Shown in pieces: positions 2,828 to 45,067 of a stretch of DNA of 60,000 nucleotides. A program made the position numbers and the translations under genes. The DNA lies in IMG/VR virus record IMGVR_UViG_3300033141_001695, positions 1-60,000 of that record; one strand, 5' to 3'. The notes under the pieces are model-generated. The model saw only the letters and a program-made list of their open reading frames with translations, had not been told where the DNA came from and ran no database searches. How positions within the stretch are numbered: the first letter of the stretch is position 1; the number at the start of each line of letters is the position of its first letter. Source of the stretch: a virus (lineage: Duplodnaviria > Caudoviricetes).

Positions 2828-2996
2828 TTAAAAGTTTTTGAATCTGAAAAATCAACTCAGAATTCGGCAAGGTCTTCCCGTTTTCATACCTGTGTATCTC
2901 GGCCGGGGTTTTCCCTAACAATTTTCCGAATTCTTTCTGAGTGATCTGTAATGATAGCCTGCTTGTTTTGATAAATTTTTCTGTTTCTGATTTCAT
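2814..2996 (-). CDS. XRE-family HTH regulator (Cro-like)
   Basis: LQITQKEFGKLLGKTPAEIHRYENGKTLP. Likely start MKSETEK at 2996 after AAAGGA; first gene of the leftward operon. Confidence 0.85.
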   Translation of the reverse strand: MKSETEKFIKTSRLSLQITQKEFGKLLGKTPAEIHRYENGKTLPNSELIFQIQKLLNDNK

Positions 2997-3003
2997 AGGT
3001 TCC

Positions 3004-3084
3004 TTTATATAGCATAAAAAAAGATTAATCAAGCAAAAAAAAAGATTAATAACGCTTGACAGGAACAAAACTAAAGTGTAGATT
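3004..3084. promoter_or_regulatory. Divergent promoter region with candidate operators
   Basis: Rightward TTGACA (3056-3061)-N17-TAGATT (3079-3084) and leftward TTGATT-N17-TATAAA. Two copies of AAAAAAAGATTAAT (about 3016-3029 and 3037-3050), the first containing the palindrome GATTAATC. Confidence 0.65.
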
Positions 3085-3256
3085 GATTTTCACGTAACAT
3101 CAAAAAGGAGGTGCCCCATGAAACGCCGCTAATCCCGGCACCCAAAATTGTTCTAATGTAGTTTCAAGTAAATGATGGGAGTGGCCGTTCGGGTGGCAGA
3201 ACTTGGGCGGCCGCTTCAACTGTAAAGAAATCCTTAACAGTTCAAAGGGAGGTTTC

Positions 3257-3709
3257 ATGAAAGGCAAAATAGGTAGCTTAGGTTCGTTATATATTGAAAG
3301 AGGCGGTTTGATGGTCATAGCTGATTGTAAATATAACGAAGGGGTTGCCTGCTCACACCGCTGCGCACACTTCGGCAATCCGGAAAGAGGCGATATGGAC
3401 ATGCCCTGTCACTGGACGCTGGAACTCTGCGACGGCAAGAAACTTGTTTTTGAAGAATTTATCGACGAAAGGGTGAACGATCAAAAAATAATACATGGTA
3501 TTAACTGTAAGAAAGAACCCCATATCAGGACTGGCTATCTCCATGCCGATGATGACGATTCTCCATATAGAGTAGATGGTTGTTACTATTGCGGACGATG
3601 CCATAGAAGTTTAGATTCATGCGACTTGAAGGAAATAAAAAACAATGCTGATCGGCAAACTCAGGCAAGACATGGACATGATGTCAATTTCAACAAGGGG
3701 ACAAAATGA
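3257..3709 (+). CDS. Hypothetical Cys-rich protein
   Basis: Start MKGKIG after GGGAGG; several Cys/His clusters. Confidence 0.55.
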   Translation: MKGKIGSLGSLYIERGGLMVIADCKYNEGVACSHRCAHFGNPERGDMDMPCHWTLELCDGKKLVFEEFIDERVNDQKIIHGINCKKEPHIRTGYLHADDDDSPYRVDGCYYCGRCHRSLDSCDLKEIKNNADRQTQARHGHDVNFNKGTK

Positions 3710-3876
3710 CCGGAAATCTCAGGCAAGACATCAAATATCTCAGACAATTATGCGACATGTATCCTGGCAGAAGATTCAAAGAGATCATGCAGATTGAAAG
3801 CCAAAAACTCGGCTGGATGGCGACAACCGGACAGCAGATTATATCGGTAATGGGAGGAAATGGATATGCATATTGA
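3706..3876 (+). CDS. Small hypothetical protein (56 aa, not in ORF track)
   Basis: ATGA overlap with the upstream stop; MTGNLRQDIKYLRQLCDMYPGRRFKEIMQIE... Confidence 0.55.
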   Translation: MTGNLRQDIKYLRQLCDMYPGRRFKEIMQIESQKLGWMATTGQQIISVMGGNGYAY

Positions 3877-4228
3877 AACTACTGTGGACAACTATGTCGG
3901 AAGGGACAACTTTATCGGCACAATCAACGTCCCGTACTGCGACAAATGCAAGGCCCAAAAACCGGATGATTCGGTAGAGGCTCTCGTATGGTATCACGAA
4001 ACACGGAAAGTACAAGGCGTTGAGTCTTCATATGATATATGCCCGGATTGCCAGACCAAAGAGCAAGGAGGGTTGACAAAGCTCTTGGCAGAAAACGAAC
4101 TAAAAAACATTGATGCTGGAATCAATCGACTCAGACAGGAATCCCGGAAGATAGAAACCAGGATTGCACGGAAAGAATTGAAATATCAAATGATCAGGAG
4201 GATGTTGAGGGGGATGGACAATGTCTAA
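3860..4228 (+). CDS. Hypothetical zinc-finger plus coiled-coil protein
   Basis: CDKC...CPDC followed by a heptad-rich tail; SD GGGAGG. Confidence 0.6.
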   Translation: MDMHIETTVDNYVGRDNFIGTINVPYCDKCKAQKPDDSVEALVWYHETRKVQGVESSYDICPDCQTKEQGGLTKLLAENELKNIDAGINRLRQESRKIETRIARKELKYQMIRRMLRGMDNV

Positions 4229-4493
4229 CGTAATCTGGAAAAAAACCGACAAGCACGTATATGCTACGATCTATAGGGAACATTGTAAGGAATTATTCGT
4301 CTTTTCTTCGTTTTCTGACCCGAGCGGGTGGAGCCCCATTGGTAACGGAAGACCCCGAATGATTACTGAATGGGGTTTCAAAGATTCAGATTTCCCTTTG
4401 ATTAAATCTATTGGTACGAAAAAAGATGAAGATCAATCAGAATATGACTATCAATATTTTATAGCGGTTATCTTGGAGAACGACAATGCCTAA
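4221..4493 (+). CDS. Hypothetical protein
   Basis: Overlapping co-directional ORF with SD. Confidence 0.6.
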   Translation: MSNVIWKKTDKHVYATIYREHCKELFVFSSFSDPSGWSPIGNGRPRMITEWGFKDSDFPLIKSIGTKKDEDQSEYDYQYFIAVILENDNA

Positions 4494-5376
4494 TATTGCT
4501 ATCAAAACCAACCCAACAATTACCGAGGCCGAATACCGCAAATACCCGGCCATGAATTATTCAAACCTTGCCAATTTCTATCAATCCCCGGATCACGCCT
4601 TAATGCCGACTGAGCCGAAAAGCTATTTTGAACACGGCAAGATATTTGAATCTTTGCTCTGTGATACTGCAACTGGGAGCGATATTTTTTCCAAACGATA
4701 CTTTTTCAGCAGACTTTCCGGGATACTGCCTGATGACCTGATTCAGCCTATTGAGCAGGGAGAGGATCTGGAACAATACGTCAGGTATAATAAGGATAAA
4801 ATAACTCGAAGCGGAACCCACAAAAAACGGCATGCTTTCATTGACGAGTGCATGGCAAACCCCGGCCTGATTCCGGTATCCACCACAGAGACAGAAATGT
4901 TAAAGCGCATGACTGAGAACATGCTCAAGATGAAGTACCAGGGTACATTAATAAGGGACATATTGAGCAACGCCCTCTTTCAAGTCCCGGTTATTTGGGA
5001 GAGTAATGGGATGCGAAAGAAGGCATTGTTTGACGTGGTGTTACATTTGGACGAGGAAACAACACTGATTGGAGACATTAAATCTACGGCAGATATGAGC
5101 CGGGTCCATAGCCAACTCTCACAAAGGCTATGGATTCAGGACCGGCACTATACTGAGGGTGCTAATGTCACATGGGGTTGCAAAGTATCCCACATGCCGT
5201 TCTTAGTGTCAAGTAAGCAAAAGCCATATCTATCACAGATCCACACTATTGACTTGGAACAGGTTGAGGATCTTGACGGAGCGTATGAGAAGGTATGTTC
5301 CGACTTTCACGCATGGAATGGTATGCCGAAGGGGTGGCTGCCGGAACGTTCACATCGAATATTTTTGAGACAATAA
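4486..5376 (+). CDS. PD-(D/E)XK exonuclease, DUF3799/RecE(ExoVIII)-like
   Basis: EAEYRKYPAMNYSNL...HG..FESLL...KALFD...IGDIKST...Q..HY; adjacent to an AAA recombination ATPase. Confidence 0.8.
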   Translation: MPNIAIKTNPTITEAEYRKYPAMNYSNLANFYQSPDHALMPTEPKSYFEHGKIFESLLCDTATGSDIFSKRYFFSRLSGILPDDLIQPIEQGEDLEQYVRYNKDKITRSGTHKKRHAFIDECMANPGLIPVSTTETEMLKRMTENMLKMKYQGTLIRDILSNALFQVPVIWESNGMRKKALFDVVLHLDEETTLIGDIKSTADMSRVHSQLSQRLWIQDRHYTEGANVTWGCKVSHMPFLVSSKQKPYLSQIHTIDLEQVEDLDGAYEKVCSDFHAWNGMPKGWLPERSHRIFLRQ

Positions 5377-5386
5377 GGAGCTTAAA

Positions 5387-6508
5387 ATGGGAATTTTGCA
5401 AATTAGGGAAGCTAAAAAGGCTGGCTCCAGGACGGTTATAGGATTAGCTGGACCATCAGGAGCAGGGAAAACATATACAGCACTTTTATTGGCATATGGA
5501 ATGGTAAATCAAAATGCAAAAAAAATCGGTTTGCTTGATACTGAAAATAAAAGAGGTTCGCTCTATGCTGACATTCTCAAGACACCTAACGGAGATATTG
5601 ACCGTTTTTTAATCGGGGATCTGCACCCGCCGTTTTCCCCATCAAGATACAGTGAAGCTATTAAGGAATTTGAAGCATCTGGAATTGAAGTTCTGGTCAT
5701 TGATAGCGTAACTCATGAATGGGAAAGTATCGGTGGTTGTGATGAGATTGCCAACAATACATCTGACAAAATGGCAAATTGGAAATTGGCTAAACGGGAA
5801 CACAAGGCGTTCATGTCGACCATGTTGCAATGTGATATGCATATTATCGTTTGTATTCGTGCCAGGGAAAAAACATCTTACAGAAACCCTAAAGCCCTTA
5901 TCAGTTTAGGTATTCAACCCATTCAAGAAAAAAACTTTATGTATGAAATGACAGCTTCTATGATGCTGTGCGATGAAGGCAAAAGCCAAAACCTAATAAA
6001 AATGCCGGAAGATTTAAGACCGATTTTGGGGAGGCGTGACGGATATTTGGGTGTCAATGACGGGGTTATGCTGAGAGATTGGGTTGCCGGAATCGTTCCA
6101 GAGGATCGAGAGGTTGAGCGATGGAAAAACAAACTGCTGATGAACACCAACCAGGGGATAGGTCACATTCAAGAATGTTGGGGTAAGGTTCCTGTTGATA
6201 TGCAGACGAAGATAGGAGAGCCTTTCCGAGAATCATTGTTTGAAGCGGCCAAAGGTTATGATGACATGAATAGTCAAAATGGTCAGGACGGTGACAATAC
6301 TGACCTTGCTAAAAAACTCAGTAGCCTCAAGCCCAAGGAGCCCGCATCCGAAATCCTTGCCGCACTTAAAGACCGCCTCGCAAAAATCCCTGCGGACATC
6401 CGCAAGCAAGCCGCAGAAGATGTGAACTGTTCTGAGGATACCGAGAGCGTGAATGAATTGCAGTTTTTAATCGAGCAATGCCGGAAACTGCTGAAGAAAG
6501 CTGATTGA
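5387..6508 (+). CDS. AAA ATPase, Sak4/AAA_24-like recombination protein
   Basis: Walker A GPSGAGKT, LLDTENKRG, Walker B VLVIDSVTHEW; paired with the exonuclease. Confidence 0.85.
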   Translation: MGILQIREAKKAGSRTVIGLAGPSGAGKTYTALLLAYGMVNQNAKKIGLLDTENKRGSLYADILKTPNGDIDRFLIGDLHPPFSPSRYSEAIKEFEASGIEVLVIDSVTHEWESIGGCDEIANNTSDKMANWKLAKREHKAFMSTMLQCDMHIIVCIRAREKTSYRNPKALISLGIQPIQEKNFMYEMTASMMLCDEGKSQNLIKMPEDLRPILGRRDGYLGVNDGVMLRDWVAGIVPEDREVERWKNKLLMNTNQGIGHIQECWGKVPVDMQTKIGEPFRESLFEAAKGYDDMNSQNGQDGDNTDLAKKLSSLKPKEPASEILAALKDRLAKIPADIRKQAAEDVNCSEDTESVNELQFLIEQCRKLLKKAD

Positions 6509-6606
6509 TAACCAATAATCGCAAGTCGGACTGCACATCCTGGCTTTGAAAAACTCACCGGCAAATCTGTTTATGTTGCTGGAAAATAAAGAAATGGAGG
6601 CCAATA

Positions 6607-7071
6607 ATGCCAACAGATTTTTCAAAAGCAAGAATTGGAGATAAAGTTGCTGATAGATTTATGCAAAAGTGGGGAATCATCGACGGTATATACAAGAATG
6701 ATGTCAGTCGTATCCATGTTAATTTTGGAGGTAAAATACTTTATTATATGAAAGATGGAAGAATTTCTGAGGATCACACAATTCCAGCTCTTGTTTGGGA
6801 TATGCAAAAGCCCGAAGATGATTGGTCAATTCTTCCTGAAATGCCCAAGCGAACGGTTAAGAAGAAGATTGAAGGATGGATTAATGTTTATCCAAAAGCT
6901 GAGTATAATTATGGAGATTTATTTACTTTAGGAGACGTTATACACAAAACAAAAGAAAAAGCTTTAAAATCCAGAACAGTAGATGCCTTAGGCGAACCAC
7001 TTTTTATCTCACATGAATACGAAGTTGAGGAGGATCAACCCAACCAGCCGGACTGCATATCTTGGCTTTGA
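6607..7071 (+). CDS. Hypothetical phage protein
   Basis: 154-aa ORF with SD GGAGG. Confidence 0.6.
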   Translation: MPTDFSKARIGDKVADRFMQKWGIIDGIYKNDVSRIHVNFGGKILYYMKDGRISEDHTIPALVWDMQKPEDDWSILPEMPKRTVKKKIEGWINVYPKAEYNYGDLFTLGDVIHKTKEKALKSRTVDALGEPLFISHEYEVEEDQPNQPDCISWL

Positions 7072-7150
7072 ATATAACGGAACAATTATGACAATTAATC
7101 ACACCCAATCAAACCCATACTCCCCACCACCATTTACAGGTACACAGACT

Positions 7151-7645
7151 ATGAAAAATAAAGAACCTCTCAGCCTGTCAAACAACCAGAAGCGGCAACT
7201 GATCATCCTGGACACCCTGGAAGCCTGTATCGTTTCCCTTCCTCCAGGGACACCCAAAAAAACCAAAGATGTTGCCAAGCGCATCATGATCCGGAATAAA
7301 AACATCATCCACCTGATCATCCCCGAAGCCAACCGGGGCCGACTCGACGGCAAGATCAAACGCCAGTACCACCGGATCATGGAATCACTCAAGACCTATA
7401 TCAACAAAAGCTTCCCGGACACCATCGACATGGTCCTGTATTTTAACACCCTGCTTTGCCTGACCGAAGATATCCGCCGGCAGATACCCAAACAAAAAAA
7501 AGCCTTCCGCCGGGAATGGGACGCCTTGGCCAGAAGCCTCAACACATTGTACCGGCATTATGATCCGGATCTGACCGGAGAAGCCCAGATGATCAGGGGA
7601 GAATTCTTCGCCGGTAAACTGCAAGAAATAATTGAAACCGCATAA
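7151..7645 (+). CDS. Hypothetical helical protein upstream of integrase
   Basis: In ORF 7013..7645, likely start MKNKEP. C/G-ending codon usage resembles the integrase fragment rather than its AT-rich neighbours. Confidence 0.55.
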   Translation: MKNKEPLSLSNNQKRQLIILDTLEACIVSLPPGTPKKTKDVAKRIMIRNKNIIHLIIPEANRGRLDGKIKRQYHRIMESLKTYINKSFPDTIDMVLYFNTLLCLTEDIRRQIPKQKKAFRREWDALARSLNTLYRHYDPDLTGEAQMIRGEFFAGKLQEIIETA

Positions 7646-7884
7646 ATAGGTGAAAAAAGGAAGAAGCTATGAAATGTAAATGGGAGAAAGATGTTCATGG
7701 GTTTTATATTACGCCTTTTTTGGGCATAAGCAAAGTTAAAGGGATTTGGTCTATTTGGATTGGTTGGTTTTATTGGCTGTTTACATGGCAAATAACAAGT
7801 CATTCAAGAAGATCATAACCCATGTTGAACAATCCTTTCATATATAGTAATATCCCTGTCCCAAATACACTGGGGGGCATCTGC

Positions 7885-8390
7885 ATGAAGGGGAATATCT
7901 ATTCGCGGCAAAAATGCTTTGTATGCGGCGCAAAACTGGCGCATGACGAACGGCGTAACGGGTGTTTCTGCCTGAAACATCCCCAGGTGGCAGCCACGCG
8001 GTTTTATGTCCGGTTTGAAAAGGTATTTAAAAATTTCAAATCCTACCCGGAAGCCGCGCAGTTTCTCAGCGGCCTTCGTTTCAAAACAGTCGAAGGCTCT
8101 TTTGATGCCCGCGACTATCAGAAAGACGCGCCCATGGGATTCGAAACCCAGGCCAAAGAGTTCATCCGCTCCAAGGAGCAGCTCAAGATCAAATCGATCA
8201 ACAACATCAGGAATTACATGAACCGTGCCATGGCCGTCTTCGGGCAGAAAAACGTCAAGACGTTCAACCGCAAAGACATTCGCTTATTTCTGTACGGCAT
8301 CCAGGGGATCTCGGAAAAGACCAGGCACAACCACCGGTCTTGCCTGCATGATTTTTTCAAAAGCCTGGTCGATGACGACGTGATCCCGCC
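7885..8390 (+). pseudogene. int: Tyrosine integrase, N-terminal fragment only (catalytic domain missing)
   Basis: Zn-binding N-terminus MKGNIYSRQKCFVCG, GSFDARDY, SAM-like core-binding domain (FGQKNVKTF...ISEKTRHNHRSCLHDFF). After DDDVIP it reads into antisense avd and stops at 8457; no R-H-R-H-Y domain. Confidence 0.8.
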
Positions 8391-8696
8391 TATTAAGCGA
8401 CCAACTTCATCTATTTTCCTAATCAATATTTCAAACTTTTTGAAAGACAAAAACTGAAGATTTTTAGCCATTTCGATCTGGCGTCTTAGAATTTCATGCT
8501 CCACATCCATCTCCTGCATTGTCGTCTTTTTATAGTATCGTTTATTTGCGCTGATCATCAGCTTCAATACTATGTATATCTGCTTTTTGATATCCGCCGC
8601 CAGGCCGAATTTTTCCGATTTTGGGAATTGACGAAGCGCAATATATGCATATTCCGTAAGTTCCAGCATTTTTTGATATACGATTAAATTTTCCAT
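8385..8696 (-). CDS. avd: DGR accessory variability determinant (Avd, four-helix bundle), C-terminus clipped
   Basis: LIVYQK...FPKSEKFGLAADIK...KKTTMQEMDVE...IDEVGRLIGG is the bAvd signature. The usual terminal W(I/L)K is replaced by read-through into antisense integrase (ORF extends to 8214). Confidence 0.9.
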
Positions 8697-8710
8697 TATT
8701 ACTTTCTTAA

Positions 8711-8728
8711 GGCCTGCTATCGCAGGCC
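8711..8728 (-). promoter_or_regulatory. DGR target-recognition hairpin downstream of VR/IMH
   Basis: GGCCTGC-GATA-GCAGGCC: a perfect 7-bp GC-rich stem with a GRNA-type 4-nt loop, 15 nt after the target stop codon, as in Bordetella BPP-1-like DGRs. Confidence 0.8.
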
Positions 8729-8743
8729 AAAACAGATCACACG

Positions 8744-9955
8744 CTACAGATTACTGATCGACAAGGCGGCGCGAAAGCCAAGGCTGTAGTCCGTGCCCGT
8801 CGGCGTACCGAGCGTACTGACAAGCAAACCGGAACGGGCGTACGAGGTCTTGTCCCAGTCGCCGCAACGTCGCAAAGCACGGGAATTATTGTTGTCATAA
8901 GCATACCAAGAATCCAGATATGTGCTATAGTGCGTCGATGGATCAGCTTTATTCGGCAGTACCATATATTTACCGGTAGCATCCTCCAACAATGCTCCGA
9001 TATTTTTCCATCCGGATGCTGCACCATTGCTGATATCCACGGCGGTTTTAAGCTGGATTAAGTCATTATCGCCGTGGGGCAATGTAAGAGCAGACGATAA
9101 AATTGCTCGCCCTGTAAATCGTCCTGTGATGATTATTCGTTTTATAGTAACATCTTCGTCCCCATTTATTATATCGGTGATTGTATAAACACCGGGTGTT
9201 AGTTGAGATACATCAACGCCATCGCCTGCGGCGTTATCATCATAATCAATATATGTGTCCGTAGCGATTCTTGCCCCAGCCAGATACGCTTTCGGCTGAT
9301 ATAGTCCACTCTCGATCCGGCAGTCTTCCCACTCGTAAATATTGGCAACCAGATTATGAATCCCTCGGCCGGGTAATCCATTATGCCACCACGAAGCGGG
9401 ACCAGAGCCGGTTAGTTTTCGATATGCAGTATATACCGGATCAGTAATGCCGTAATTCTCCCAACTATCCGCATCCCGAATGTCTTTCCCACTGTTATTA
9501 TTGCCTCGTTGCTGTCCCCACATTCCTGATTTCATAATAAGAGACAGAATTGAAAACCGCTCAAACGGTGTAAGCAAATGGCAAAATCTATCTCCAATCT
9601 TTCGATTGCTTGCGGCAATTCTTGCATTAAGCCATGAAATATCTGTCCACGGCACAACGCCTGGTTTTGAGCATGCAGCCACAAGACCGGGTGAATCGGC
9701 TGAAGTAGAACCTCGACTTGTTGAAGATGCATCGGGCTGACAAGCTTCATATACATCAGCCCAAAAACCTCCTGCTTCCAAATCATTCAATGCTGCTTGA
9801 GGCCAACCGGACGTTTTGAATCGCGGAATAAATGCCATGGTTGAAATAACATCATCACCAGTACCATCATTATTTGATTTATGAACGAAATCCCGAACAT
9901 CCAAAGATGAATTCAAGGCAGCCTGTATGCCACCTAAACTTAAAGGTATATCCAA
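8744..9955 (-). CDS. DGR target protein, CLec/FGE-sulfatase-like fold (Mtd-like receptor-binding protein)
   Basis: AFIPRF, GFWADVYEA, SKPGVVPWTDISW..A, HLLT..E, TGSGPASWWHN...GIHNLVANIYEW and C-terminal GFR; last gene of the tail-fibre module, immediately before avd. Confidence 0.9.
   Translation of the reverse strand: MDIPLSLGGIQAALNSSLDVRDFVHKSNNDGTGDDVISTMAFIPRFKTSGWPQAALNDLEAGGFWADVYEACQPDASSTSRGSTSADSPGLVAACSKPGVVPWTDISWLNARIAASNRKIGDRFCHLLTPFERFSILSLIMKSGMWGQQRGNNNSGKDIRDADSWENYGITDPVYTAYRKLTGSGPASWWHNGLPGRGIHNLVANIYEWEDCRIESGLYQPKAYLAGARIATDTYIDYDDNAAGDGVDVSQLTPGVYTITDIINGDEDVTIKRIIITGRFTGRAILSSALTLPHGDNDLIQLKTAVDISNGAASGWKNIGALLEDATGKYMVLPNKADPSTHYSTYLDSWYAYDNNNSRALRRCGDWDKTSYARSGLLVSTLGTPTGTDYSLGFRAALSISNL
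8762..8881 (-). other. DGR variable region (VR)
   Basis: Encodes RALRRCGDWDKTSYARSGLLVSTLGTPTGTDYSLGFRAAL. Codons at positions that are Asn in typical TRs are NNC/NNT (GAC, GAC, TAC, CTT, AGT, CTC, GGT, GGC, GAC, TAC, AGC). Confidence 0.85.
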
Positions 9956-9958
9956 AAT

Positions 9959-10303
9959 TTAATCTCCTTCCGGCAACTGCCAATATACGATGTCAATATC
10001 ATTTTCGGTGAGTACAGTTCTAATTGATCGGGTCTCGGGCATACCGTTTTCATCTAAAATCGGTTGGTCAAATTCATCCAAAACCGGCTCAGTGTGATAC
10101 GCAATTCCCGGAAGAGCTATCTCAGCTATCAACCAGAATCCTGAACCATCCAGAGTTAATTTGTCCTCTGATCTGTAAATTCTGACAACGTAAGGAGTGT
10201 ATCGCTGCAAAGTGCTTAGATTTAATTCTTGCTCACGGAATTCGAGCGAACTTATAAAGAATTCATTGTCTTGGGTTAAAAATACCGGTGTTAATTGGCT
10301 CAT
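9959..10303 (-). CDS. Tail-fibre-module protein
   Basis: Likely start MSQLT at 10303 (overlap with the upstream stop); directly upstream of the DGR target. Confidence 0.6.
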   Translation of the reverse strand: MSQLTPVFLTQDNEFFISSLEFREQELNLSTLQRYTPYVVRIYRSEDKLTLDGSGFWLIAEIALPGIAYHTEPVLDEFDQPILDENGMPETRSIRTVLTENDIDIVYWQLPEGD

Positions 10304-10632
10304 AATATCACCTCCCAATCGAATCCAGTTGTTATATCTGAACCGCTGCATTTTACAACGAACGAATTAGCAGCTTTTGATTCCACGCTGATCTCACCGA
10401 TAAATCCGCTTGAACTATGAGGCGTTATGTCAACCTTGTAGTCTGTTGTTTCAAGTGCATGAGAAGTTATGTCAATAGTCGCACCGATTGTACTGTTGAA
10501 TGTGCTGGACCCTCTGGCCAAGTTTTTAGACCGAGTAAGTGTTGCCGTTCCGCCAATGGCTACGTCGCCTGAAAAGTCGCCTGTGGTTCCCCTGACTGCA
10601 CCATTGAACGAGCCTACACCCATAAAACCCAT
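10300..10632 (-). CDS. Short tail fibre/adaptor protein
   Basis: Gly/Thr-rich beta protein ending YKVDITP...GEISV..KAANSFVV...FDWEV. Confidence 0.55.
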   Translation of the reverse strand: MGFMGVGSFNGAVRGTTGDFSGDVAIGGTATLTRSKNLARGSSTFNSTIGATIDITSHALETTDYKVDITPHSSSGFIGEISVESKAANSFVVKCSGSDITTGFDWEVIL

Positions 10633-10642
10633 AATTTCCCCT

Positions 10643-11023
10643 TTACAACGTTGCCAGATTAACAGTTATGGTCACAGCAGCCGCCCCGCCAGTTTCAATC
10701 GCCACAATTTTGTAATACCGCGCAAAATGCGGACTGAATTGAATCAGAACCTTGCCGTTACTCCCTGGGCCGGATGTTTTGGTGAGTCCTGACATAATTT
10801 CGACAAAGTTGGAGCCGGAATAACTTCCTTCTGGGGCTAAAAAATCATTTCCGTCATTGCTGGCTATATAGCCCAACTTGACCGTACCATCCCCTGCAAT
10901 AGTGGCCTGAAGTGAGAAGAAGCCGTTTGCACCGCTGATATCGGTAATGTCAGACGTTTCCGTTTCACTTTTGGCAACTTCCTTCGCTCCAAAAACTGTT
11001 TTAACTTTTAGATTATTATTCAT
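10643..11023 (-). CDS. Virion structural protein (jelly-roll-like)
   Basis: FSLQ...GTVKL...SNDG..F...FARYYKIV pattern common in small tail accessory proteins. Confidence 0.5.
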   Translation of the reverse strand: MNNNLKVKTVFGAKEVAKSETETSDITDISGANGFFSLQATIAGDGTVKLGYIASNDGNDFLAPEGSYSGSNFVEIMSGLTKTSGPGSNGKVLIQFSPHFARYYKIVAIETGGAAAVTITVNLATL

Positions 11024-11649
11024 ATCGGATCACCTATTTTATTTTTTGCATAAAGAATACCAATACCAACATAATGCGCCACATCATCGGCAGTGTCTAA
11101 TTCGTCGTCAGAACCAATACGCGCAATTTTTACAGTACAATATCTATCGTCCGAATCCGGTAATACTGCTATGTCAAAAACTGTATATTGATAACCGTTA
11201 GCCGTGCTTGATACTGCCACTGTTTCGGTTACTGTCTCATCTGGTGTTGAGCTGCTTGTATCTTCATTAAGTTTGCGCCAAAGATATTGTATCTCCCATT
11301 TCACATTTCCAGTATTCACACCACATGACCAGCCTATAATAAACTTAAAAGGAACTGTTCGATCTGTGCCTTTTTGTAAAGTGAAAGTTATGGATATTTC
11401 ATTATCAGCAGCTTTCGCAAATTCCCAAGCTCCGCCTATTCCATGAGTTACATAAGTTGCAGGTTTTATTCCTGGCGCCCGCGCAGAGCCAGCACTTATT
11501 TGAATATATTCTGTTATTCTGGCATCACCATACAATGTAATTTCGCCATTGTTTGCAATTTCAATGTAATCGCCTGTTGCAACATTGCCTATAAGTCCAG
11601 TCGGGCCCCTGATTGCACCGAAGAACGGGCCTATTCCTTTAAAGCTCAT
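11020..11649 (-). CDS. Tail fibre/appendage protein
   Basis: Beta-rich. Its N-terminus MSFKGIGPFFGAIRG resembles that of 10300..10632 (MGFMGVGSFNGAVRG). Confidence 0.55.
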   Translation of the reverse strand: MSFKGIGPFFGAIRGPTGLIGNVATGDYIEIANNGEITLYGDARITEYIQISAGSARAPGIKPATYVTHGIGGAWEFAKAADNEISITFTLQKGTDRTVPFKFIIGWSCGVNTGNVKWEIQYLWRKLNEDTSSSTPDETVTETVAVSSTANGYQYTVFDIAVLPDSDDRYCTVKIARIGSDDELDTADDVAHYVGIGILYAKNKIGDPI

Positions 11650-11668
11650 AGTGTATTTATTCCTCCAT

Positions 11669-11707
11669 AAAAAAGCCGTACCAGATTAAGATATCTGACA
11701 CGGCTTT
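11669..11707 (-). terminator. Intrinsic terminator before the tail-fibre/DGR module
   Basis: AAAGCCGT-GTCAGAT...ATCTGGT-ACGGCTTTTTT on the minus strand, immediately followed by the SD GGAGG. Confidence 0.75.
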
Positions 11708-11766: not shown

Positions 11767-14700
11767 TTACCTTTTCCGCTTCATCTTTAAATAATGTAAC
11801 CGATACCATTTTAAAGCAATATTATAGCTCTTTCGTTGTTTTTTATTCAGTGATCTCAAAAACTTACGTCTTAATCGTTTTGGAACAGAAGCCAATGGAT
11901 GAGTTGCTTTTATGCTTATTTTAATGCCACCAAGCGTTCCACCTAACTTTTTATATTTTTCCAAATACCGTTTAGCTGCACTTAAATCTCCATACTTCAG
12001 AGATTGTTTGTAATAATATAAAGCATTGGATTTTGTTGTCGGAATAAATCCAGGCTTTTCAATGCCTTCTTTATCCAAAAAATCGAATGATGCTTTCTTA
12101 ACATCATAATACGCCGATTCCCCAGGATCGGACGTATAGAACCCCAAAGATAGCACGTCATTAAAAAGACGTTCCGTTATATCTTCTCCTCTCTTTGGTT
12201 TTCCGGCTATCCACTTATAGGGTAGATTCATGGAGAATGTCCGTGCAATATGCTCCCATTTATCACGGATAGGACGAGGGAAAAATGGGTCCGGATAAGT
12301 CGTTCTCCCAAGAACAGTTTCTCCAAGAGTTTTAATTATAGGCCTTGAACCATGCCATATTTTTATTACAGGCGCCTTGAAAGCTTCTTCCATTTTTGTA
12401 CCAATTGGTTGTATCCCTTTTGCCACATCGCTTATGTCATGGACAATATCTTCAGCACCAAACCATGACAGCGTATCGCTTAATGCTCCTTGGAATCGCA
12501 AAGAAATGATACTACCATCTTCCCTCCTACCTAAAATCAAATGAAGCTGTCTGCGTTGAGCTTCCCCCAATTCTTTTTCTTCGTCCGGAAAGAAGGTCAT
12601 ATTCCACAATATGACAGCGCCGTATAAAGCAGTTGCTTTCAATCCTAATTTGGTTGCTTTCCATGCCATAGCACCAGATACAACTTTTGTGCTTTTGCCT
12701 TCATGCGGAAGGTTTTGAAGTAATCTCACATATCTTGGGGCATTGATTTCTTGCCATGACCAGAACGGGATCATGTGCGCTCTGAGCCATTGCCCTGCCT
12801 GTGAAATATTTCCGTAATCACCGATTAATTCTCGCGCTAATTTTGCAGCCATTTCATCGGACGTTGCGCTTTCAGCCATCTTTTGCAACTCCGCCCGAAT
12901 GGAAACACCATTGAGATTGATCCCGGGCTTTTTACCTTTTGCAATTTCATCTTTGAAATATCGGAAAGCTGCAAGCCTGAGAAGATTTTCTCGATAAGTT
13001 GTATATTGCACTGCACTTCGCCAATATTTTTGTATAAGATTTGGCTTTTCTCCAAGCAACATTGACATGTGCTTGTCATGGGATAATTGACTAGTCACTT
13101 CAGCAACTTCCTGAATAGACCATCCAGAACCTAATACATCTAATTTATACGATTGATCTATTTCAGCTTGAAGTTCATCTGATATCTTTTTCTTTTTGAG
13201 TTCCTGCCATAAATCCTTAGTGGCTTTTGGAAAATAATTTTTTATAATTCGCGGTTCATAAGCAAGGATGATATCTGAATCGCCAGAAGTATTATTGATA
13301 TTGTATTTTATCCATCGGAACGGATTCATCAATATCCATTTTTTCCATGCACTAATCATAGTTACCGATGCTTTTTCTAAGACATTATCTTCAGGAAACT
13401 TTCTGAACTCATCCATTGTTAAGGCTAATTCTTGTGGAATTACCCATGTTTCATCGATACCTCGGGCTAAAATCTGTTTGACATCTTCCGGCTTTAACTG
13501 GCTGGTTCCTTCTTGAATTTCCATTAACATTCGGTCTGTAATAGAGTTGGCTTTAAACCATGCCGTTCCTGGTCTTGGTTTCCAAGTTGTGTAGCCTTCA
13601 GGGATTAGTTTTGTCCAATCTTTTATTTCCTTGGCCTTGGCTTCTGCTTTTAAACTTGGGACAATATTGGCTAAGTCCTTGATTCTGTCTAATGTTTTCT
13701 TTGTTTCAATCTGAGATAAAGCTTGAGCTATTACCTCAAATTCAGAATCAACATATTGAGTGTTGTAATCTTTGATGGAACCTTTACGGGCTATCTGCCA
13801 ACCTTTTCTATGAGCACGAACATCTTTTGCCGATGTTCCCGTACCTGGTTTGTAATCCTCACCCATGGCCTTGGCCAATTGGTATTCCATTACCTGATGG
13901 TGAAAATAATCATCATATTTCATTACATCTTCAGAAAGCAATTTATTTTCAACCAATTCTTTCTTGAGCGAATGGTTAAATTCCCTACGTCTTTTCAAAG
14001 CTTCCTTTATTTTTGGATCCTTTTCGGCAATCTTATTCAGATAATCATAATATGACTTAACGTCTTTTCTGTCTTTAAACCCAAAAGGCAATTCTTCCTT
14101 GTCTGCAAGCAAGCCATTATCAATATCACGAATCATATCACCCATGATAATATGCATGGTAAAGAAATCATATCTTTTTGGTGTCAATATTCGCAAAAAA
14201 TTATCAATGGCAGCACTCGCCCTTCTGCGTGAATCTGTAGGTATATTGGAATATATCCGTAAAATATTGAGATAATCACCATGTGTTTTAGGGTCAAGGT
14301 GTTTGTGTGTCCGTTTAAACGCTTGATAAGCTTTGGTAAATCCCCGTTTAGCTTTGTCTATCAACTTTGGTTTTGGGATACCTTTGGCCAAACCGATGCG
14401 CTCTTTCTGTTTGTCTGTTCGTCCATAAAGTGGATCTGCGTCTATTTCTGGTGTATCTTTTTTGACGCTATAGAGGATGTCTGCCTCAGTCGCAACTTCA
14501 TCCCTTACTTCTGATATTATTTTACCGGTTTCGATATCACGAACAACTCCTCTTACAGTTCTTATCCCCATCTTATTAATCACAAGATCAATAAAGTCAG
14601 CAATCTTCTGAAGTATCCTTTGGATAGGTCGAATTTGTGCATCCCTGGTCTTAAACGCTTCTTCAATAAACTTTGCTCTCGTCTCTTCGTTGGGCGACTG

Positions 14701-17700
14701 TCCTTTACGTTTAATGGCTTTATTCAGCGCAGACATATCTTTAGTGTCAAGGATTCCTGACTTTTCAAGAAAATGCGTAAATTCATGGTCAATAGTCCAT
14801 CTATTCCCTACGCCTTCAACAATATTAATCGATTTGTCAGCATGATCATAGAAGCCTGCCACTTGCTCCCCAGGCTTGAGCCCGTGTCTTCCATATCCGA
14901 CATTGAGCGTTACACTTCCCGGGTCAACACCTTCAATACTGTTGATTATGAAACCCAAATTATTCCTGAACTTGACTGATATTTTTCCGTCCTCTGCTTG
15001 GGTTACTGCGGCGGTTTTGAATCGGGGGTGAGCCTTGATTGATTCCAAGTTGATTTGGGTTAAGGATGGCACTTCTGTTATGGCGTAGACTTTTGGTTCT
15101 TTCCTCAAACCAATAAAAGGCTTAACCTCGATTTCAGGATGATGCTTTTTAAAATAAGCTTCTTTTACCGCTTGAATTGTTTCAGCTTTTTTAACTCGTA
15201 TTTCTTTCCCGGCCTTTGTCGTTTTGATCACTTGCCATTTACTGACAAAATCGTTTGCCTCTTTTAAATCATCAGTGAAAAGCTTAACATTAAAGGTTTT
15301 GCCTTGTGTTATTATTTCTTTGGCAACTTCTTTCGGCTTTGCGGGTTCTTCGGCCACGGGCTTAATTTTGGCTCGTTCAATTCTGCCTGGTTCGCCTTCC
15401 TTACGGATTGGCTCATCACCTGGTCGAAAACCGATAATTTCCTGTTGGGCTTTTCCATAATATTGTTCCTCTACTTTTTGGATGGCATTTTCAATAATTT
15501 CCGATGGAGATATTTCGGCATCATCTTCAAACAAGGCTTTTGTTTGAGCATCCATCTTAATTCTTCTGATGGCTTTTGCGGATTCGCTGAACACAAGACC
15601 CATTCGTTTTGCACTTCTGATGTTTTCATTAAGAAAACGGGTTGTTTTATGAACCTCTTCCGGGATCTGTTCAAACATGCCGATTTGCGAAAGGATCGTA
15701 TCTATCGGTTCTCCGGTTCTACGGGATTGCCTTATCAGCTTTGCCGCTGCAATGATATTGCTTGATACTTCTGACGCTGCACCGGTTCTCCCTTTAACAG
15801 CTTTTGCCTGGATAAAATGCGGAGCAGCCACGTTCAGGGCATTAAGAATGGTTTTAATGTCCGGGTCCGCTTCCTCGGCAATCAGAGTCAACAATGTATC
15901 ATCATTGTACGCCTTGTGAAAAATAGCCATTTGTATTCGATCAATCAACTGCTTAGTGTACCGGCCATCTTCTGTTAAAAAACCTGCGGCCTCGCTTGGT
16001 CCCAACTGCTTGATGAACCGATTAATAAAAGTAGAATTGCTCCTTGCTGTTATATCCCCTTCGTCGGACGGTTTGAACGTGGATAAGTCCGCATCGGTGA
16101 GTTTTTCAGCATCATTCTTGGCAACTTCAACAGGTGACATTCTGGCAACTTCATCCTGATTGGCACGTTTGGCAAAGTCCACCCGGTCAACATCTGTCTT
16201 GCGAGCCCGTACCAAAACAGGCTGATCAAGAGCTTCGATATCCTCTTTTTTCAGCCCAAACTTTTCAGCATTGGCGGTGAGCCATTCTTTATATTTTTGT
16301 CCTATATCACGCCCGTATGCCTTCCTGATAGCAATAGTTCGTCCATTGCCGGACTCAACCACCATGTCATCACCAACAATCGGAGCCCCTGATGCAACGC
16401 TGGCAGACTCGCCCAACCGTTCAGGATTCAACTTTTTTGCCATCTCTTCAATTTGAAGCTTCATGGCAGATCGTTCCCGGTCACGGGGTTGCATCTCTTG
16501 TGGGTATGCCTTGTTTATAGCCAAAGTGTCGGTATGGGAGGTTATCAAGTTATTGGCATTGGTTACGGCGTATTGTGTTTTGATAGGAGTATTGTCGCTG
16601 AGATATGAAGTTGATTCTTTACCTTTCTCGGCCACTGGCGGCACTACGATTTCCGGCTCTTTAGCAACGGGAGGCTCAACCTTCAGATCAACTTCAACCA
16701 ACTCAACCTTCTCCATCCTCGGTGCATACGTCTTCCCGTCCTCCCCTCGTACCGTATAGGAAGCCTTGTTCACCTTCTCAACGGTTCCCCGCATCGGCTT
16801 CCCGCCTTTGCCTGTCCATGTGACTGTGGCGCCGGGGATGATCTCTTTAGGTTCTACAACCTCGGGTTTCTCTTCAATGGGTGGTTTTGGTTCAGGCAGC
16901 TTTTTTTCTTCAATCCCAAGTCTTTCTTTATAATTATGAATCAGCCTTTCATTCTCTCTATAATTTTCGTATTCATCTCCAACGCCAGCTTCTTTATATA
17001 ATTGCCTTGCTTCCAATAATCTTTGCAATGCATTTTTGGGTTTTAATCCATAAGACTTTTTGTGAAGTTTATCTGCTTTGGCAACTATGTCAGTTTTTGG
17101 CTTTATTGGTTCAATTTTCACTTCAGGCTCAACAATAGGTACAACTTTCGGTTCAGGCTTAACTTCTTCAGGCTTCTTTTTCGGTAACGTCTTTTGAGCG
17201 TATTCCCGCGCATACCGACCTACGGCATCATCCGTATCGTAGAACTTTTCAACCGCTTCCATGGATCCAAGTTCTTTGACTTTGTTTTCGATGAAGGGTT
17301 TGTTGATTTCGGGTGCTGGTTTAGGTTCTTCAGGTTTTACTTCAGCTTCCGGCAACGGCTCGACTTTGGCCTCTTCAGGTTTTGGCTCTACGGGAGGCAC
17401 AGGTTTCTCTTCCGGTATTTCCTCAACAACGGGCGGCGCAGGTTCAGGCACAACTTCCGGTGGTATTACCGCTTCCGGTTCAACCCTCGCTTCTTCTCGT
17501 CGTAATTCCTCGTCACTGGCCGCTCTTCTGGCTGCCTCTGGGAATTGAATATCCTCGCGGCTAACTCTTTCGCCCTCTTCAACGGCAATCCTTGGCGCTG
17601 GAACTTTTTTTTCAGCTTCACGTATTTCTCTGGCATATTCTTCCCCCCTTTCTATTTCTGGTCTTGTAGGTTCAACAGTTTCGACTTTTGCAAATCTCGG

Positions 17701-19518
17701 TGCGTATTTTTTACCATCCTCACCCTTAACGGTATAGGATGCTTTGTTTACTTTCTCAACGACTCCGCGTATCGCCTTGCCGTCTCTATCTGTCCAGGTT
17801 ACGGTTGTCCCTGGCGGAATTGCTTCTGTCACTGGTTCTTCGGGAATGATTCCTTCGGGCAATGTGGGTTCTATTTCTTCAACCAATTCATCTTGAATCT
17901 CTTGTGCGGCTTGTCTCCTTTGAAGCCTGATATTTTCTGTAGCGTCTATTCTGGATTCTGGATCTGTGACATATTTTTTTGCAGCAATATCACGAACCAT
18001 CATCCCGGCTTTGGCTGCTCCACCCATCACCGTAGTTGTTAAAAATACTGAAGGTGCAACTTCTCGAAGTGATTTCAAATGAGCCACGGGATCTGTCCAC
18101 TCTCTTTTTTCACCACCTAAACCAGCAGCATATTCAATATTAGACTGCCCCATCTGCGTTAATTCTTCTGTCACCAATTCAGTGCCATAAAGCGCACCTA
18201 ATTTTGTGATTAATCTTGAAATAATATTTTCACCCAAAACCGGAGCCATCCTTTTCAATGGGGTGGCTATTATCTTCAAACCCGTAGCTTGTCCTATGGC
18301 TTCCGGCAAAGCCTCCCAAAGTCCGTATTTCTGGGCAAGATTGCCGAAATCTTCTTTTAGCTTAGTTTCCTCATCAAGTGTGAGTGTCTTCCCGGTTCTT
18401 TTTAATTTTTCTTCATTTTGAACTTCAAGGTACCTCTTCATGAAATCATAAGAAGCCATGTTATAGGCAGCTTTACCGGCTGCTGCCGTACCTGCCGCCC
18501 ATGCAGCCGGTCTTGCACCAGGAATGGGAGCCATTGCAGTAGGCAACCCGACGCCTACACCGGCTAAAGCAGACAACCCAGAGAACGCCAAATTCTCAGG
18601 AAGCTGTGCAACGTCTCTTTCTGATATTCCTGGAAATATCCTTTCTTCGCCATATTGCCTTGAAAATTCTTCTGATTGTTTTTGGGCTTTTTCATATTGC
18701 TTATCAAACCAATCTTGATTGACAATACTTGCACCTTTCCAACCTTGAACCGCTGCGGCAGATTTCCCAAGCATTTGACGAGGAAGCTTTGTTAGACCTT
18801 TAGCGAATATCTTTAATCCTTCAATTGGGTGAAGTGAACCTGTCCTTTCAGGGTCTTGTTTTTTTTGTTGGCTATATATTTTGTCGATCAAAGAACCTAC
18901 GTCTCGTTTCCAAGGATCTATATATCCAAATGCACGTTTCCATTCAGGGGATCGTTGTATCCCTGCTCTGGCCAAACCTCTTGTTGTTGGTTGTTTGGCC
19001 TCTCTTATGGTTGTCGGTTGAAATTCACCACGCACAGTTGGTTGTTGAATCTCCCCGGGATAATGTTTTGAAATATTTTTAAGATATTGCCTCGTCTCAT
19101 CTGCATGGCGACCGGTAACCTTGTGGAGATTTTCAAGCCATTTATCTCCATGGGCTTTTATGGCCTTGTCCACATTCCCAGGTCCAGCGTTGTAGGCGGC
19201 GGATGCTTTTAAGGGATCTCCACCATATTTTTTCAAATTCTGAGCAAGGTACTTGGTCCCGCCCATGATACTTTGTTCTGGATCAAACGGATCTGTTACG
19301 CCCAAGTCACCAGCAGTCGCATCCATGATTTGCATTAAACCCTTCGCGCCGGCGCTTGATATGGCCTTGGGATTGAAATTACTTTCCGATTTGATTATGG
19401 CCTTGATATAATTAGGGTCAACTCCATATTCGGAAGAGGCCGAAGCAACAATGTCATCAATATTGGATGATTGTTTTTTCAATCCGGTTGTTTCCATGAT
19501 TAAGCCTTGATTAGCCAT
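11767..19518 (-). CDS. Large polyvalent internal-virion/ejection protein: lytic transglycosylase, ddrB-like ParB, zincin metallopeptidase and helical C-terminus
   Basis: SLT motifs IKSESNF...AKGLMQIM...AAYNAGPG; ddrB-ParB-like QPRDR...GAPIV...VESGNGR; HEFTH (14773-14787); Pro/Glu-rich linker; last of the internal-protein genes. Confidence 0.85.
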   Translation of the reverse strand: MANQGLIMETTGLKKQSSNIDDIVASASSEYGVDPNYIKAIIKSESNFNPKAISSAGAKGLMQIMDATAGDLGVTDPFDPEQSIMGGTKYLAQNLKKYGGDPLKASAAYNAGPGNVDKAIKAHGDKWLENLHKVTGRHADETRQYLKNISKHYPGEIQQPTVRGEFQPTTIREAKQPTTRGLARAGIQRSPEWKRAFGYIDPWKRDVGSLIDKIYSQQKKQDPERTGSLHPIEGLKIFAKGLTKLPRQMLGKSAAAVQGWKGASIVNQDWFDKQYEKAQKQSEEFSRQYGEERIFPGISERDVAQLPENLAFSGLSALAGVGVGLPTAMAPIPGARPAAWAAGTAAAGKAAYNMASYDFMKRYLEVQNEEKLKRTGKTLTLDEETKLKEDFGNLAQKYGLWEALPEAIGQATGLKIIATPLKRMAPVLGENIISRLITKLGALYGTELVTEELTQMGQSNIEYAAGLGGEKREWTDPVAHLKSLREVAPSVFLTTTVMGGAAKAGMMVRDIAAKKYVTDPESRIDATENIRLQRRQAAQEIQDELVEEIEPTLPEGIIPEEPVTEAIPPGTTVTWTDRDGKAIRGVVEKVNKASYTVKGEDGKKYAPRFAKVETVEPTRPEIERGEEYAREIREAEKKVPAPRIAVEEGERVSREDIQFPEAARRAASDEELRREEARVEPEAVIPPEVVPEPAPPVVEEIPEEKPVPPVEPKPEEAKVEPLPEAEVKPEEPKPAPEINKPFIENKVKELGSMEAVEKFYDTDDAVGRYAREYAQKTLPKKKPEEVKPEPKVVPIVEPEVKIEPIKPKTDIVAKADKLHKKSYGLKPKNALQRLLEARQLYKEAGVGDEYENYRENERLIHNYKERLGIEEKKLPEPKPPIEEKPEVVEPKEIIPGATVTWTGKGGKPMRGTVEKVNKASYTVRGEDGKTYAPRMEKVELVEVDLKVEPPVAKEPEIVVPPVAEKGKESTSYLSDNTPIKTQYAVTNANNLITSHTDTLAINKAYPQEMQPRDRERSAMKLQIEEMAKKLNPERLGESASVASGAPIVGDDMVVESGNGRTIAIRKAYGRDIGQKYKEWLTANAEKFGLKKEDIEALDQPVLVRARKTDVDRVDFAKRANQDEVARMSPVEVAKNDAEKLTDADLSTFKPSDEGDITARSNSTFINRFIKQLGPSEAAGFLTEDGRYTKQLIDRIQMAIFHKAYNDDTLLTLIAEEADPDIKTILNALNVAAPHFIQAKAVKGRTGAASEVSSNIIAAAKLIRQSRRTGEPIDTILSQIGMFEQIPEEVHKTTRFLNENIRSAKRMGLVFSESAKAIRRIKMDAQTKALFEDDAEISPSEIIENAIQKVEEQYYGKAQQEIIGFRPGDEPIRKEGEPGRIERAKIKPVAEEPAKPKEVAKEIITQGKTFNVKLFTDDLKEANDFVSKWQVIKTTKAGKEIRVKKAETIQAVKEAYFKKHHPEIEVKPFIGLRKEPKVYAITEVPSLTQINLESIKAHPRFKTAAVTQAEDGKISVKFRNNLGFIINSIEGVDPGSVTLNVGYGRHGLKPGEQVAGFYDHADKSINIVEGVGNRWTIDHEFTHFLEKSGILDTKDMSALNKAIKRKGQSPNEETRAKFIEEAFKTRDAQIRPIQRILQKIADFIDLVINKMGIRTVRGVVRDIETGKIISEVRDEVATEADILYSVKKDTPEIDADPLYGRTDKQKERIGLAKGIPKPKLIDKAKRGFTKAYQAFKRTHKHLDPKTHGDYLNILRIYSNIPTDSRRRASAAIDNFLRILTPKRYDFFTMHIIMGDMIRDIDNGLLADKEELPFGFKDRKDVKSYYDYLNKIAEKDPKIKEALKRRREFNHSLKKELVENKLLSEDVMKYDDYFHHQVMEYQLAKAMGEDYKPGTGTSAKDVRAHRKGWQIARKGSIKDYNTQYVDSEFEVIAQALSQIETKKTLDRIKDLANIVPSLKAEAKAKEIKDWTKLIPEGYTTWKPRPGTAWFKANSITDRMLMEIQEGTSQLKPEDVKQILARGIDETWVIPQELALTMDEFRKFPEDNVLEKASVTMISAWKKWILMNPFRWIKYNINNTSGDSDIILAYEPRIIKNYFPKATKDLWQELKKKKISDELQAEIDQSYKLDVLGSGWSIQEVAEVTSQLSHDKHMSMLLGEKPNLIQKYWRSAVQYTTYRENLLRLAAFRYFKDEIAKGKKPGINLNGVSIRAELQKMAESATSDEMAAKLARELIGDYGNISQAGQWLRAHMIPFWSWQEINAPRYVRLLQNLPHEGKSTKVVSGAMAWKATKLGLKATALYGAVILWNMTFFPDEEKELGEAQRRQLHLILGRREDGSIISLRFQGALSDTLSWFGAEDIVHDISDVAKGIQPIGTKMEEAFKAPVIKIWHGSRPIIKTLGETVLGRTTYPDPFFPRPIRDKWEHIARTFSMNLPYKWIAGKPKRGEDITERLFNDVLSLGFYTSDPGESAYYDVKKASFDFLDKEGIEKPGFIPTTKSNALYYYKQSLKYGDLSAAKRYLEKYKKLGGTLGGIKISIKATHPLASVPKRLRRKFLRSLNKKQRKSYNIALKWYRLHYLKMKRKR

Positions 19519-43878: not shown

Positions 43879-43922
43879 CCCAATCGCCCCGGCAACGGGG
43901 CTTAGAGCAAAAGGAGGAAATC

Positions 43923-44135
43923 ATGACAAAAACGAGCATAAAAAATTACGAAGAAATTGACTATCAGGACGCTGAAAATGACATGATAACTTTTGACTAT
44001 GCCGGCCATACATTCACGCTCAACCCAGACGACATACACCAAGTTTCAGCCGACGATGATGGAAGTGTAGTTTTTGACCCTCGCACCATCCTGGATGTAG
44101 ACGAAGACAATCAGATTCTTTTTATTGAAAAATGA
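43923..44135 (+). CDS. Small, highly acidic early protein
   Basis: SD AAGGAGG; 70 aa, very Asp/Glu-rich. Confidence 0.75.
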   Translation: MTKTSIKNYEEIDYQDAENDMITFDYAGHTFTLNPDDIHQVSADDDGSVVFDPRTILDVDEDNQILFIEK

Positions 44136-44219
44136 CTATACAAGAACTTTTATTAAAATCCTTATTGATAATAACTAACCGCCCCGGCAACGGGGCTTAA
44201 TTGAAAAGAAGATCGAAAT

Positions 44220-44357
44220 ATGAATTCAAAAAAATACTATGCTGAAATAGAATGGATTCTTGATTCAGACAGATTTTCCAGGCCAATCGGAAAGCAAAAT
44301 CGACTTAAAAAGATAAGTCGCTTAAGAAAAGCAAGAAGATTACGAAGAAATATCTAA
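44220..44357 (+). CDS. Small basic protein (45 aa, not in ORF track)
   Basis: MNSKKYYAEIEWILDSDRFSRPIGKQNRLKKISRLRKARRLRRNI, fitting exactly between hairpins 2 and 3. Confidence 0.65.
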   Translation: MNSKKYYAEIEWILDSDRFSRPIGKQNRLKKISRLRKARRLRRNI

Positions 44358-44399
44358 ACACAACCCGCCCCGGCAACGGTGCTAAAAGGGGGTTAGGTC

Positions 44400-44558
44400 A
44401 TGGAAAAAAGAATAGAGCAAGCAATCAAAAACGCAACACCCTTCACCGGATCAAATGAATCTTGGGTTTTCTATCATGGTAACAAGGCGGAAGAAAAAAA
44501 ACAAAAATATATAAACGAATGCAACGCAAGACTTGAAAAATTAAAAAAGAAATTATAA
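44400..44558 (+). CDS. Small protein (52 aa, not in ORF track)
   Basis: MEKRIEQAIKNATPFTGSNESWVFYHGNKAEEKKQKYINECNARLEKLKKKL after hairpin 3 and SD AAGGGGG. Confidence 0.65.
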   Translation: MEKRIEQAIKNATPFTGSNESWVFYHGNKAEEKKQKYINECNARLEKLKKKL

Positions 44559-44605
44559 CCCCAACCTGTCATAGGCACGGCTCAAACTGCCTGAAAGGAA
44601 GTTTC

Positions 44606-45011: not shown

Positions 45012-45032
45012 TAAACAGATCAAATATTAACC

Positions 45033-45063: not shown

Positions 45064-45067
45064 GTTA

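Follow-up and report, generated by a model that had tools for sequence, protein, structure and literature searches.

The window, the whole 60,000-nt stretch of DNA analysed here, is the genome of a tailed phage (Duplodnaviria; Caudoviricetes; IMG/VR record IMGVR_UViG_3300033141_001695, positions 1 to 60,000). Its minus strand carries part of a diversity-generating retroelement (DGR) at 8385-9955, where the target gene, the variable repeat (VR), a hairpin and the accessory gene avd lie in the positions given to them by a first-pass annotation made from the DNA alone. The template repeat (TR) and the reverse transcriptase (RT) of the DGR are absent, and both avd and a convergent integrase gene on the plus strand end at the same nucleotide. 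The target is the final gene of a long structural operon, the tail module, on the minus strand. The record ends in a 114-nt terminal repeat (1-114 = 59887-60000) and is listed with a completeness of 100, which confirms that the genome closes on itself, as had been annotated. The features of the locus are listed below; P0004 is a full-length, 395-aa homologue of the integrase, and L001 and L043 are related loci with the DGR cassette.

7885-8385 (+): 5' remnant of the integrase gene, 167 of ~395 codons, from the P0004 alignment and weak SAM-type Pfam matches
8385-8386 (no strand): junction at which integrase homology and avd homology both end, from pairwise alignments and from the sequence and its frames
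8385-8696 (-): avd remnant, codons 1-104 of ~111-119, from Pfam bAvd and the alignment with L001 Avd
8711-8728 (-): DGR target-site hairpin/cruciform element, from the sequence, the published GRNA pattern and related loci
8744-9955 (-): DGR target gene, 403 aa, TTG start, from an AlphaFold2 model, Foldseek and phmmer
8764-8881 (-): 118-nt VR, which encodes the ligand-binding face at the C-terminus, from its register with the L001 and L043 VR/TR pairs

The target protein has no Pfam match. Its AlphaFold2 model, made with an alignment of 55 homologues, has a predicted local distance difference test (pLDDT) score of 89.3 and a predicted template modelling (pTM) score of 0.90. The best Foldseek match to the model is TaqVP of the Thermus aquaticus DGR (5vf4; E 5e-14, template modelling (TM) score 0.55-0.58). 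The Mtd variants of phage BPP-1 (1yu3) match with a best E of 2e-3, and formylglycine-generating enzymes (FGEs) appear lower in the list. In a phmmer search with the target, 5vf4 is the sole sequence match in the PDB (E 2.8e-5, residues 95-218). As modelled, the target has a C-type-lectin/FGE-like fold into which a beta domain is inserted, and the C-type-lectin assignment made at first pass is borne out. TaqVP is the closest structural match, but its identity to the target is 18-20%, and it is encoded on a bacterial chromosome whereas the window target is encoded at the end of a phage tail module. Mtd shares with the window target the C-type-lectin fold and the C-terminal VR but is remote from it (10% identity in the structural alignment). 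The target is presumed to be a receptor-binding protein. In one homologue (L002:2071-3639), the frame reads past the conserved ...GFRAAL end for ~120 Ala/Val/Gly-rich residues, and no avd follows.

The closest points of comparison for the cassette are L043 (IMGVR_UViG_3300036941_000530), L001 (IMGVR_UViG_3300037067_023233) and the 45,440-nt provirus G009 (IMGVR_UViG_2526164528_000001), whose RT matches the L043 RT at 100% identity. In L043, the target (1021-2229) with its VR (2092-2209) is followed by avd (2281-2616), the TR (2634-2751) and a 341-aa RT (2914-3939). L001 has the same target-hairpin-avd-TR-RT order, and the contig end cuts its RT. Relative to the window, the targets of L043/G009 and L001 are 62-66% identical and the Avd proteins 75-78% identical. 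These relatives are like the window in that the VR stands in a 118-nt register and the hairpin loop is GATA or GGTA. They are unlike it in that they retain TR and RT, and the window shows no relation to the remainder of their genomes. Mismatches between VR and TR fall at TR adenines in 15 of 15 cases in L043 and 15 of 17 in L001. The DGR of BPP-1 (mtd-avd-TR-brt) has the same target-avd-(TR-RT) gene order as the window. That G009 and the window have target and avd in common suggests that the DGR target module is exchanged horizontally between phages.

The window VR (8764-8881, minus strand) aligns in the same 118-nt register as the VR/TR pairs of L001 and L043. Its adenine content is 12.7%, against 28% elsewhere in the target gene. 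The VR departs from the L001 and L043 TRs at 15 of the 25 sites at which both carry A and at 8 of the 62 at which both carry the same non-A base (Fisher p = 1.9e-5 for the bias towards A sites). The cognate TR is missing and the comparison runs through the TRs of relatives; read in this way, the depletion and the biased divergence indicate that the window VR underwent adenine mutagenesis, which agrees with the mutagenised VR of the first-pass annotation. The GC-rich 3' end of the VR (8764-8779, GGCTTTCGCGCCGCC) is conserved with the relatives and is likely the equivalent of the initiation of mutagenic homing (IMH) element. In L001 and L043, the homology between VR and TR stops just after a difference of GCC (VR) versus GAC (TR).

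The annotated hairpin, GGCCTGC-GATA-GCAGGCC, is at 8711-8728 (minus strand), 15 nt past the target stop and 14 nt ahead of the avd ATG, exactly in the gap between target and avd. It has a 7-bp GC-rich stem and a 4-nt GATA loop on the sense strand. The available part of the work on BPP-1 (PMC3240598) describes a DGR hairpin at a distance of 4-34 bp from the VR, with a GC-rich stem of 7-10 bp, whose sequence may vary freely, and a 5'-GRNA loop, whose sequence matters. The window hairpin agrees with this stem-and-GRNA-loop pattern, and BPP-1 itself, in the same source, has a GC-rich GRNA-loop hairpin downstream of its VR. With the stem set at 7 bp or more and the loop at 4 nt, the window contains 4 perfect hairpins, about the number due to chance (3.7 in shuffled sequences), but only 0.15 hairpins with a GC-rich stem are expected per window. 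Among 80 related avd loci, 13 have a hairpin with a G[AG]TA loop at the same position; these have eleven different stem sequences, and the stems covary and the loop is conserved. Three further loci have AT-rich hairpins that are probably due to chance, and at the other 64 the 110 nt upstream of avd contain no perfect stem of 6 bp or more. An intrinsic terminator was considered for the window hairpin and rejected, as no T-run follows it and it matches the DGR GRNA pattern.

No RT is found in the window. A six-frame search of the whole 60-kb record with the RVT_1 profile returns no candidates. On L043, this search recovers the RT at 66.8 bits, but it misses the 122-aa RT stub of L001, so a small RT fragment in the window could escape it. 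With the 341-aa L043 RT as a tblastn query, the best match in the window has an E of 1.9. The TR is likewise absent. In blastn searches of the window at word size 7 with the VR, the L001 and L043 TRs and the whole L043 TR-to-RT segment, only the VR itself is matched, and a repeat search of the window yields no second copy of it. A search of IMG/VR with a 27-nt pattern from the VR core, in which two variable sites were masked, returns nothing. The L001 and L043 TRs differ from the window VR at 21 and 24 non-adenine sites, respectively, out of 118. The first-pass annotation had reported neither an RT open reading frame (ORF) nor a second VR copy, and both statements stand. With RT and TR tested for and both absent, the window does not qualify as an autonomous DGR. 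What it holds is the acceptor half of a DGR of the BPP-1 type, in which the fold, the VR footprint and the hairpin are present and Avd is truncated.

The probable cause of the loss, which the first-pass annotation missed, is a breakpoint at 8385/8386. The avd ORF, which starts at 8696, matches Pfam bAvd (PF22296; E 6.2e-27) over profile positions 1-104 of 107. It encodes 160 aa; the L043 and L001 genes encode 111 and 119 aa, respectively. As far as ...GRLIGG at codon 104, the product is 75% identical to L001 Avd; beyond this, the two are unrelated. In the intact relatives, Avd ends in ...GRLIGGWKK... and 4-10 further residues; in the window, the native stop and the last 7-15 residues are replaced by 56 unrelated residues, as the ORF runs on to 8214 through the antisense strand of the integrase. 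The annotated avd is thus present but not intact, being cut at codon 104 and fused to integrase antisense.

The integrase is cut at the same base. Its ORF begins at 7822, with the ATG at 7885 as the probable start, and it continues to 8457 as the antisense of avd. Aligned with residues 1-173 of P0004, the remnant is identical at 163 of 173 positions (94%), and the identity ceases after ...DDDVI at codon 167, nt 8385. Weak matches to Phage_int_SAM_4 and SAM_1 are present. The remnant keeps the N-terminal Cys-rich and SAM-like domains only and is without the catalytic domain; PF00589 has no match anywhere in the window at E <= 0.1. A homologue search limited to proteins of 371-2000 aa yields 49 full-length homologues of 374-451 aa, of which 15 have a precomputed PF00589 match and 11 are named integrase by the Joint Genome Institute (JGI). 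In P0004 itself, the PF00589 match at residues 223-365 is weak (21.3 bits) and below the cut-off. Sibling integrases that are 92-94% identical to the window remnant exist. The remnant has no relative in IMG/VR, and P0004 has relatives there of 42% identity or less only. In metagenome contigs, P0004 matches 34 loci at <=62% identity, none of which has a DGR adjoining the integrase; the exception of a kind is L008, with a distant Avd-like match 8 kb from the integrase.

Integrase homology and avd homology both end at nt 8385, with a possible overlap of 0-1 nt, and past this point each truncated ORF reads into the antisense of the other. Because both genes break at one base in this way, 8385/8386 has the signature of one deletion or recombination joint, as far as the alignments and reading frames can show. 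The joint occupies the place of the avd tail, TR and RT in the intact relatives. An arrangement from which such a joint could arise is found in provirus G009. Its RT lies at 44415-45437 on the plus strand, 3 nt short of the right end of the record, and its left end carries a PF00589 integrase on the minus strand (46-483; E 7e-29). As the two genes lie at opposite ends of the provirus, they converge across the attachment site in the circular form, which supports the layout implied by the window joint.

A single deletion, or an imprecise excision, at 8385/8386 is the best explanation of the locus without RT and TR, and we regard it as likely. In the ancestor, a target-avd-TR-RT cassette would have stood on the minus strand at the end of the tail module, converging on a plus-strand tyrosine integrase, with the attachment site presumably between them. 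In one illegitimate recombination, integrase codon 167 and avd codon 104 would have been brought together. Such an event may have occurred as an internal deletion of a circular or replicating genome, or as an imprecise prophage excision that recombined inside both ends; the two routes are indistinguishable here. The avd tail, the TR, the RT, the presumed attachment site and the catalytic half of the integrase would have been removed, at least ~2.0 kb in all. This size comprises 1,347 nt from avd codon 105 to the RT stop, as measured in L043, and 687 nt for 228 integrase codons and a stop, in addition to a spacer that presumably held the phage attachment site (attP).

The consequences of such an event would be twofold. 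Without TR RNA and RT, the VR would no longer be rewritable by the phage itself, and its receptor-binding specificity would be fixed. Without the catalytic domain, the phage would no longer be able to integrate by that integrase. The cis signals would persist since the loss is recent, not since they are in use. The receptor-binding tip is most likely frozen. Of the two readings offered by the first-pass annotation, the one in which a receptor-binding variant was frozen by loss of its mutator is supported, as one breakpoint truncates avd and the convergent integrase where TR and RT would lie.

Several observations weigh against a deletion. The junction and the VR are known from assembled sequence alone. 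G009 has only the target (62%), avd (77%) and one further ORF in common with the window, its integrase belongs to another family and P0004 has no match in it; the provirus shows an arrangement, not ancestry. No sequence of the undeleted ancestor was recovered, and the metagenome-contig search did not return the contig of P0004, so that the adjacency of integrase and RT in the window lineage is inferred. The target-avd module also appears to be mosaic among otherwise unrelated phages, and the joint could stem from module exchange.

In a module exchange, the target and part of avd would have been acquired from a DGR phage through an illegitimate crossover between donor avd and recipient integrase, and TR and RT would never have been present in this lineage. 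The distribution of the module is in keeping with this, since L001, L002, L004 and L043 share with the window only the target, with or without avd, and G009 shares three ORFs. An exchange would require a second joint upstream of the target, however, and none is seen. The two genes upstream of the target are also shared with L003 and L123, where their homologues lie beside the target. A deletion gives the same structure in one step, and the convergent integrase/RT layout that it requires is documented in G009. We consider an exchange unlikely. It is also possible to read the joint as an assembly artefact, in which ~2 kb was skipped or mis-joined and both DGR and integrase are whole in the real phage. 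In favour of this, the record is a contig assembled from a metagenome, and a full-length, 94%-identical integrase is present on another short contig. No misleading repeat is found at the joint, however, where at most 1 nt is shared and the only match is a 71% chance match; the contig closes by its 114-nt terminal repeat and is rated complete, and comparable truncations occur in the independent records L123 and L048. An artefact is therefore improbable, more so than an exchange.

The other reading of the first-pass annotation is that the phage keeps its cis signals and borrows TR and RT. The acceptor site would then be rewritten whenever a co-resident sibling phage or prophage supplies Avd, RT and a cognate TR RNA. 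The known cis requirements appear to be intact in the window (VR, IMH-like end and GRNA hairpin), and a close sibling lineage exists, as seen in the integrases of 92-94% identity. There is also a precedent: in the available part of PMC3240598, BPP-1 deleted for avd-TR-brt switches tropism when these functions are supplied in trans from a plasmid. This engineered phage, BPP-1 delta-ATR, is like the window in that TR and RT are gone and the acceptor site is kept. The window differs in that the loss is natural, the cut lies inside avd (104 codons left) and the catalytic domain of the integrase is removed too. Trans-diversification is nevertheless unsupported. Avd itself is damaged, no cognate TR is present in the window, the VR-core pattern is unmatched in IMG/VR, and the TRs of L001 and L043 differ from the VR at many non-adenine sites, as given above. 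If the deletion is recent, the signals would still be in place whether or not they serve a function, and the destruction of the integrase in the same event gives it the look of an accident. Rewriting in trans is accordingly the least probable of these alternatives and would be surprising.

The preferred reading, a deletion at the RT end of the cassette, can be compared with other loci that lack an RT. Of the avd loci that have 1,500 nt or more of downstream sequence, 88 in all, 85 have an RT within 2.5 kb, and the exceptions are L128, L048 and L123 (3 of 88; the loci are not dereplicated in either count). In L128 (8878-13914), a prophage in a metagenome-assembled genome (MAG) of the Bacillota, a target, avd and a 124-nt TR that is 91% identical to the VR are present, with no adjacent RT. 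An amidase/endolysin gene, a holin gene and a truncated Mg-chelatase gene lie downstream. The MAG contains five RVT_1 genes elsewhere, and it is conceivable that an RT acts on L128 from a distance. In L048 (212-3700), an IMG/VR fragment, an FGE/C-type-lectin-type target and a full 111-aa Avd are present, TR and RT are absent, and a 603-aa baseplate-hub-like gene is next after avd.

In L123 (11244-11600), on a contig of an Opitutaceae MAG, the target is 60% identical to that of the window and a GATA hairpin with a 10-bp stem is present. Its avd matches to approximately codon 59 only, after which GC-richer DNA follows with host-like genes, a glycosyltransferase gene and a DegV-family gene. The 3.9-Mb MAG has no RVT_1 match. 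In a further locus, L004 (7953-9200), from a 40.7-kb terminally repeated IMG/VR genome, a target homologue of 59% identity has a VR-like C-terminus. No hairpin, avd or RT is found there, and the target stop directly precedes the ribosome-binding site of the next gene.

These loci form graded states. The RT is lost and the TR kept in L128, TR and RT are lost and avd is whole in L048, avd is cut in L123, and no cis signals are left in L004. With the window included, the series suggests that DGRs are lost repeatedly, starting at the RT end and moving inward. A wider scheme would combine the two ideas: owing to the position of the RT beside the attachment site, DGRs would erode in this direction and regularly spawn target-only phages, as in the series L128, L048, window, L123 and L004, and a phage without an RT would be rewritten in trans by an intact sibling DGR in the same cell. 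In such a case, the phage would gain diversification without paying for an RT. This scheme is very unlikely, hardly more probable than rewriting in trans of the window alone.

As a single locus, the window is an ordinary decay product, a decayed DGR, and not a new mechanism. Read as a deletion, it shows at base-pair precision how a phage DGR dies, through one event at the integrase/RT junction that would both freeze a diversified receptor-binding tip and remove the catalytic half of the integrase. DGR surveys start from the reverse transcriptase, and for this reason cassettes without an RT are invisible to them. No natural RT-less DGR remnant with intact cis signals is described in the literature searched. 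Recurrent loss from the RT end bears on the patchy distribution of DGRs among related phages. It also bears on the loss of DGRs in stable environments, which is predicted by theory in the available sections of PMC3575424 and bioRxiv 10.64898/2026.02.18.706561.

A blastn search of 6500-11700 against the phage collection returns no match. A homologue of the target is present in Desulfotignum balticum and homologues of the integrase are present in Desulfobacteraceae MAGs, which hints, by homology, at a host among the Desulfobacterota. Upstream of the integrase remnant, a recombination module on the plus strand (4486-6508) contains an exonuclease VIII-like gene (phrog_412) and a gene for a Sak4-like annealing protein (phrog_1366, phrog_124). 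In the tail module, upstream of the target, a single ORF of 2,583 aa occupies 11767-19518 on the minus strand. A 375-aa ORF (19554-20681, minus strand), placed just downstream of this giant tail gene, contains a 117-nt unit that is tandemly duplicated at 20051-20284 with 83% identity between the copies. In a gene-poor stretch at 43882-44397, a 35-nt element occurs three times at spacings of 295 and 186 nt. Each copy contains a hairpin of the CCCCGG-CAA-CGGGG type, and the elements may be terminators, regulatory repeats or origin repeats.

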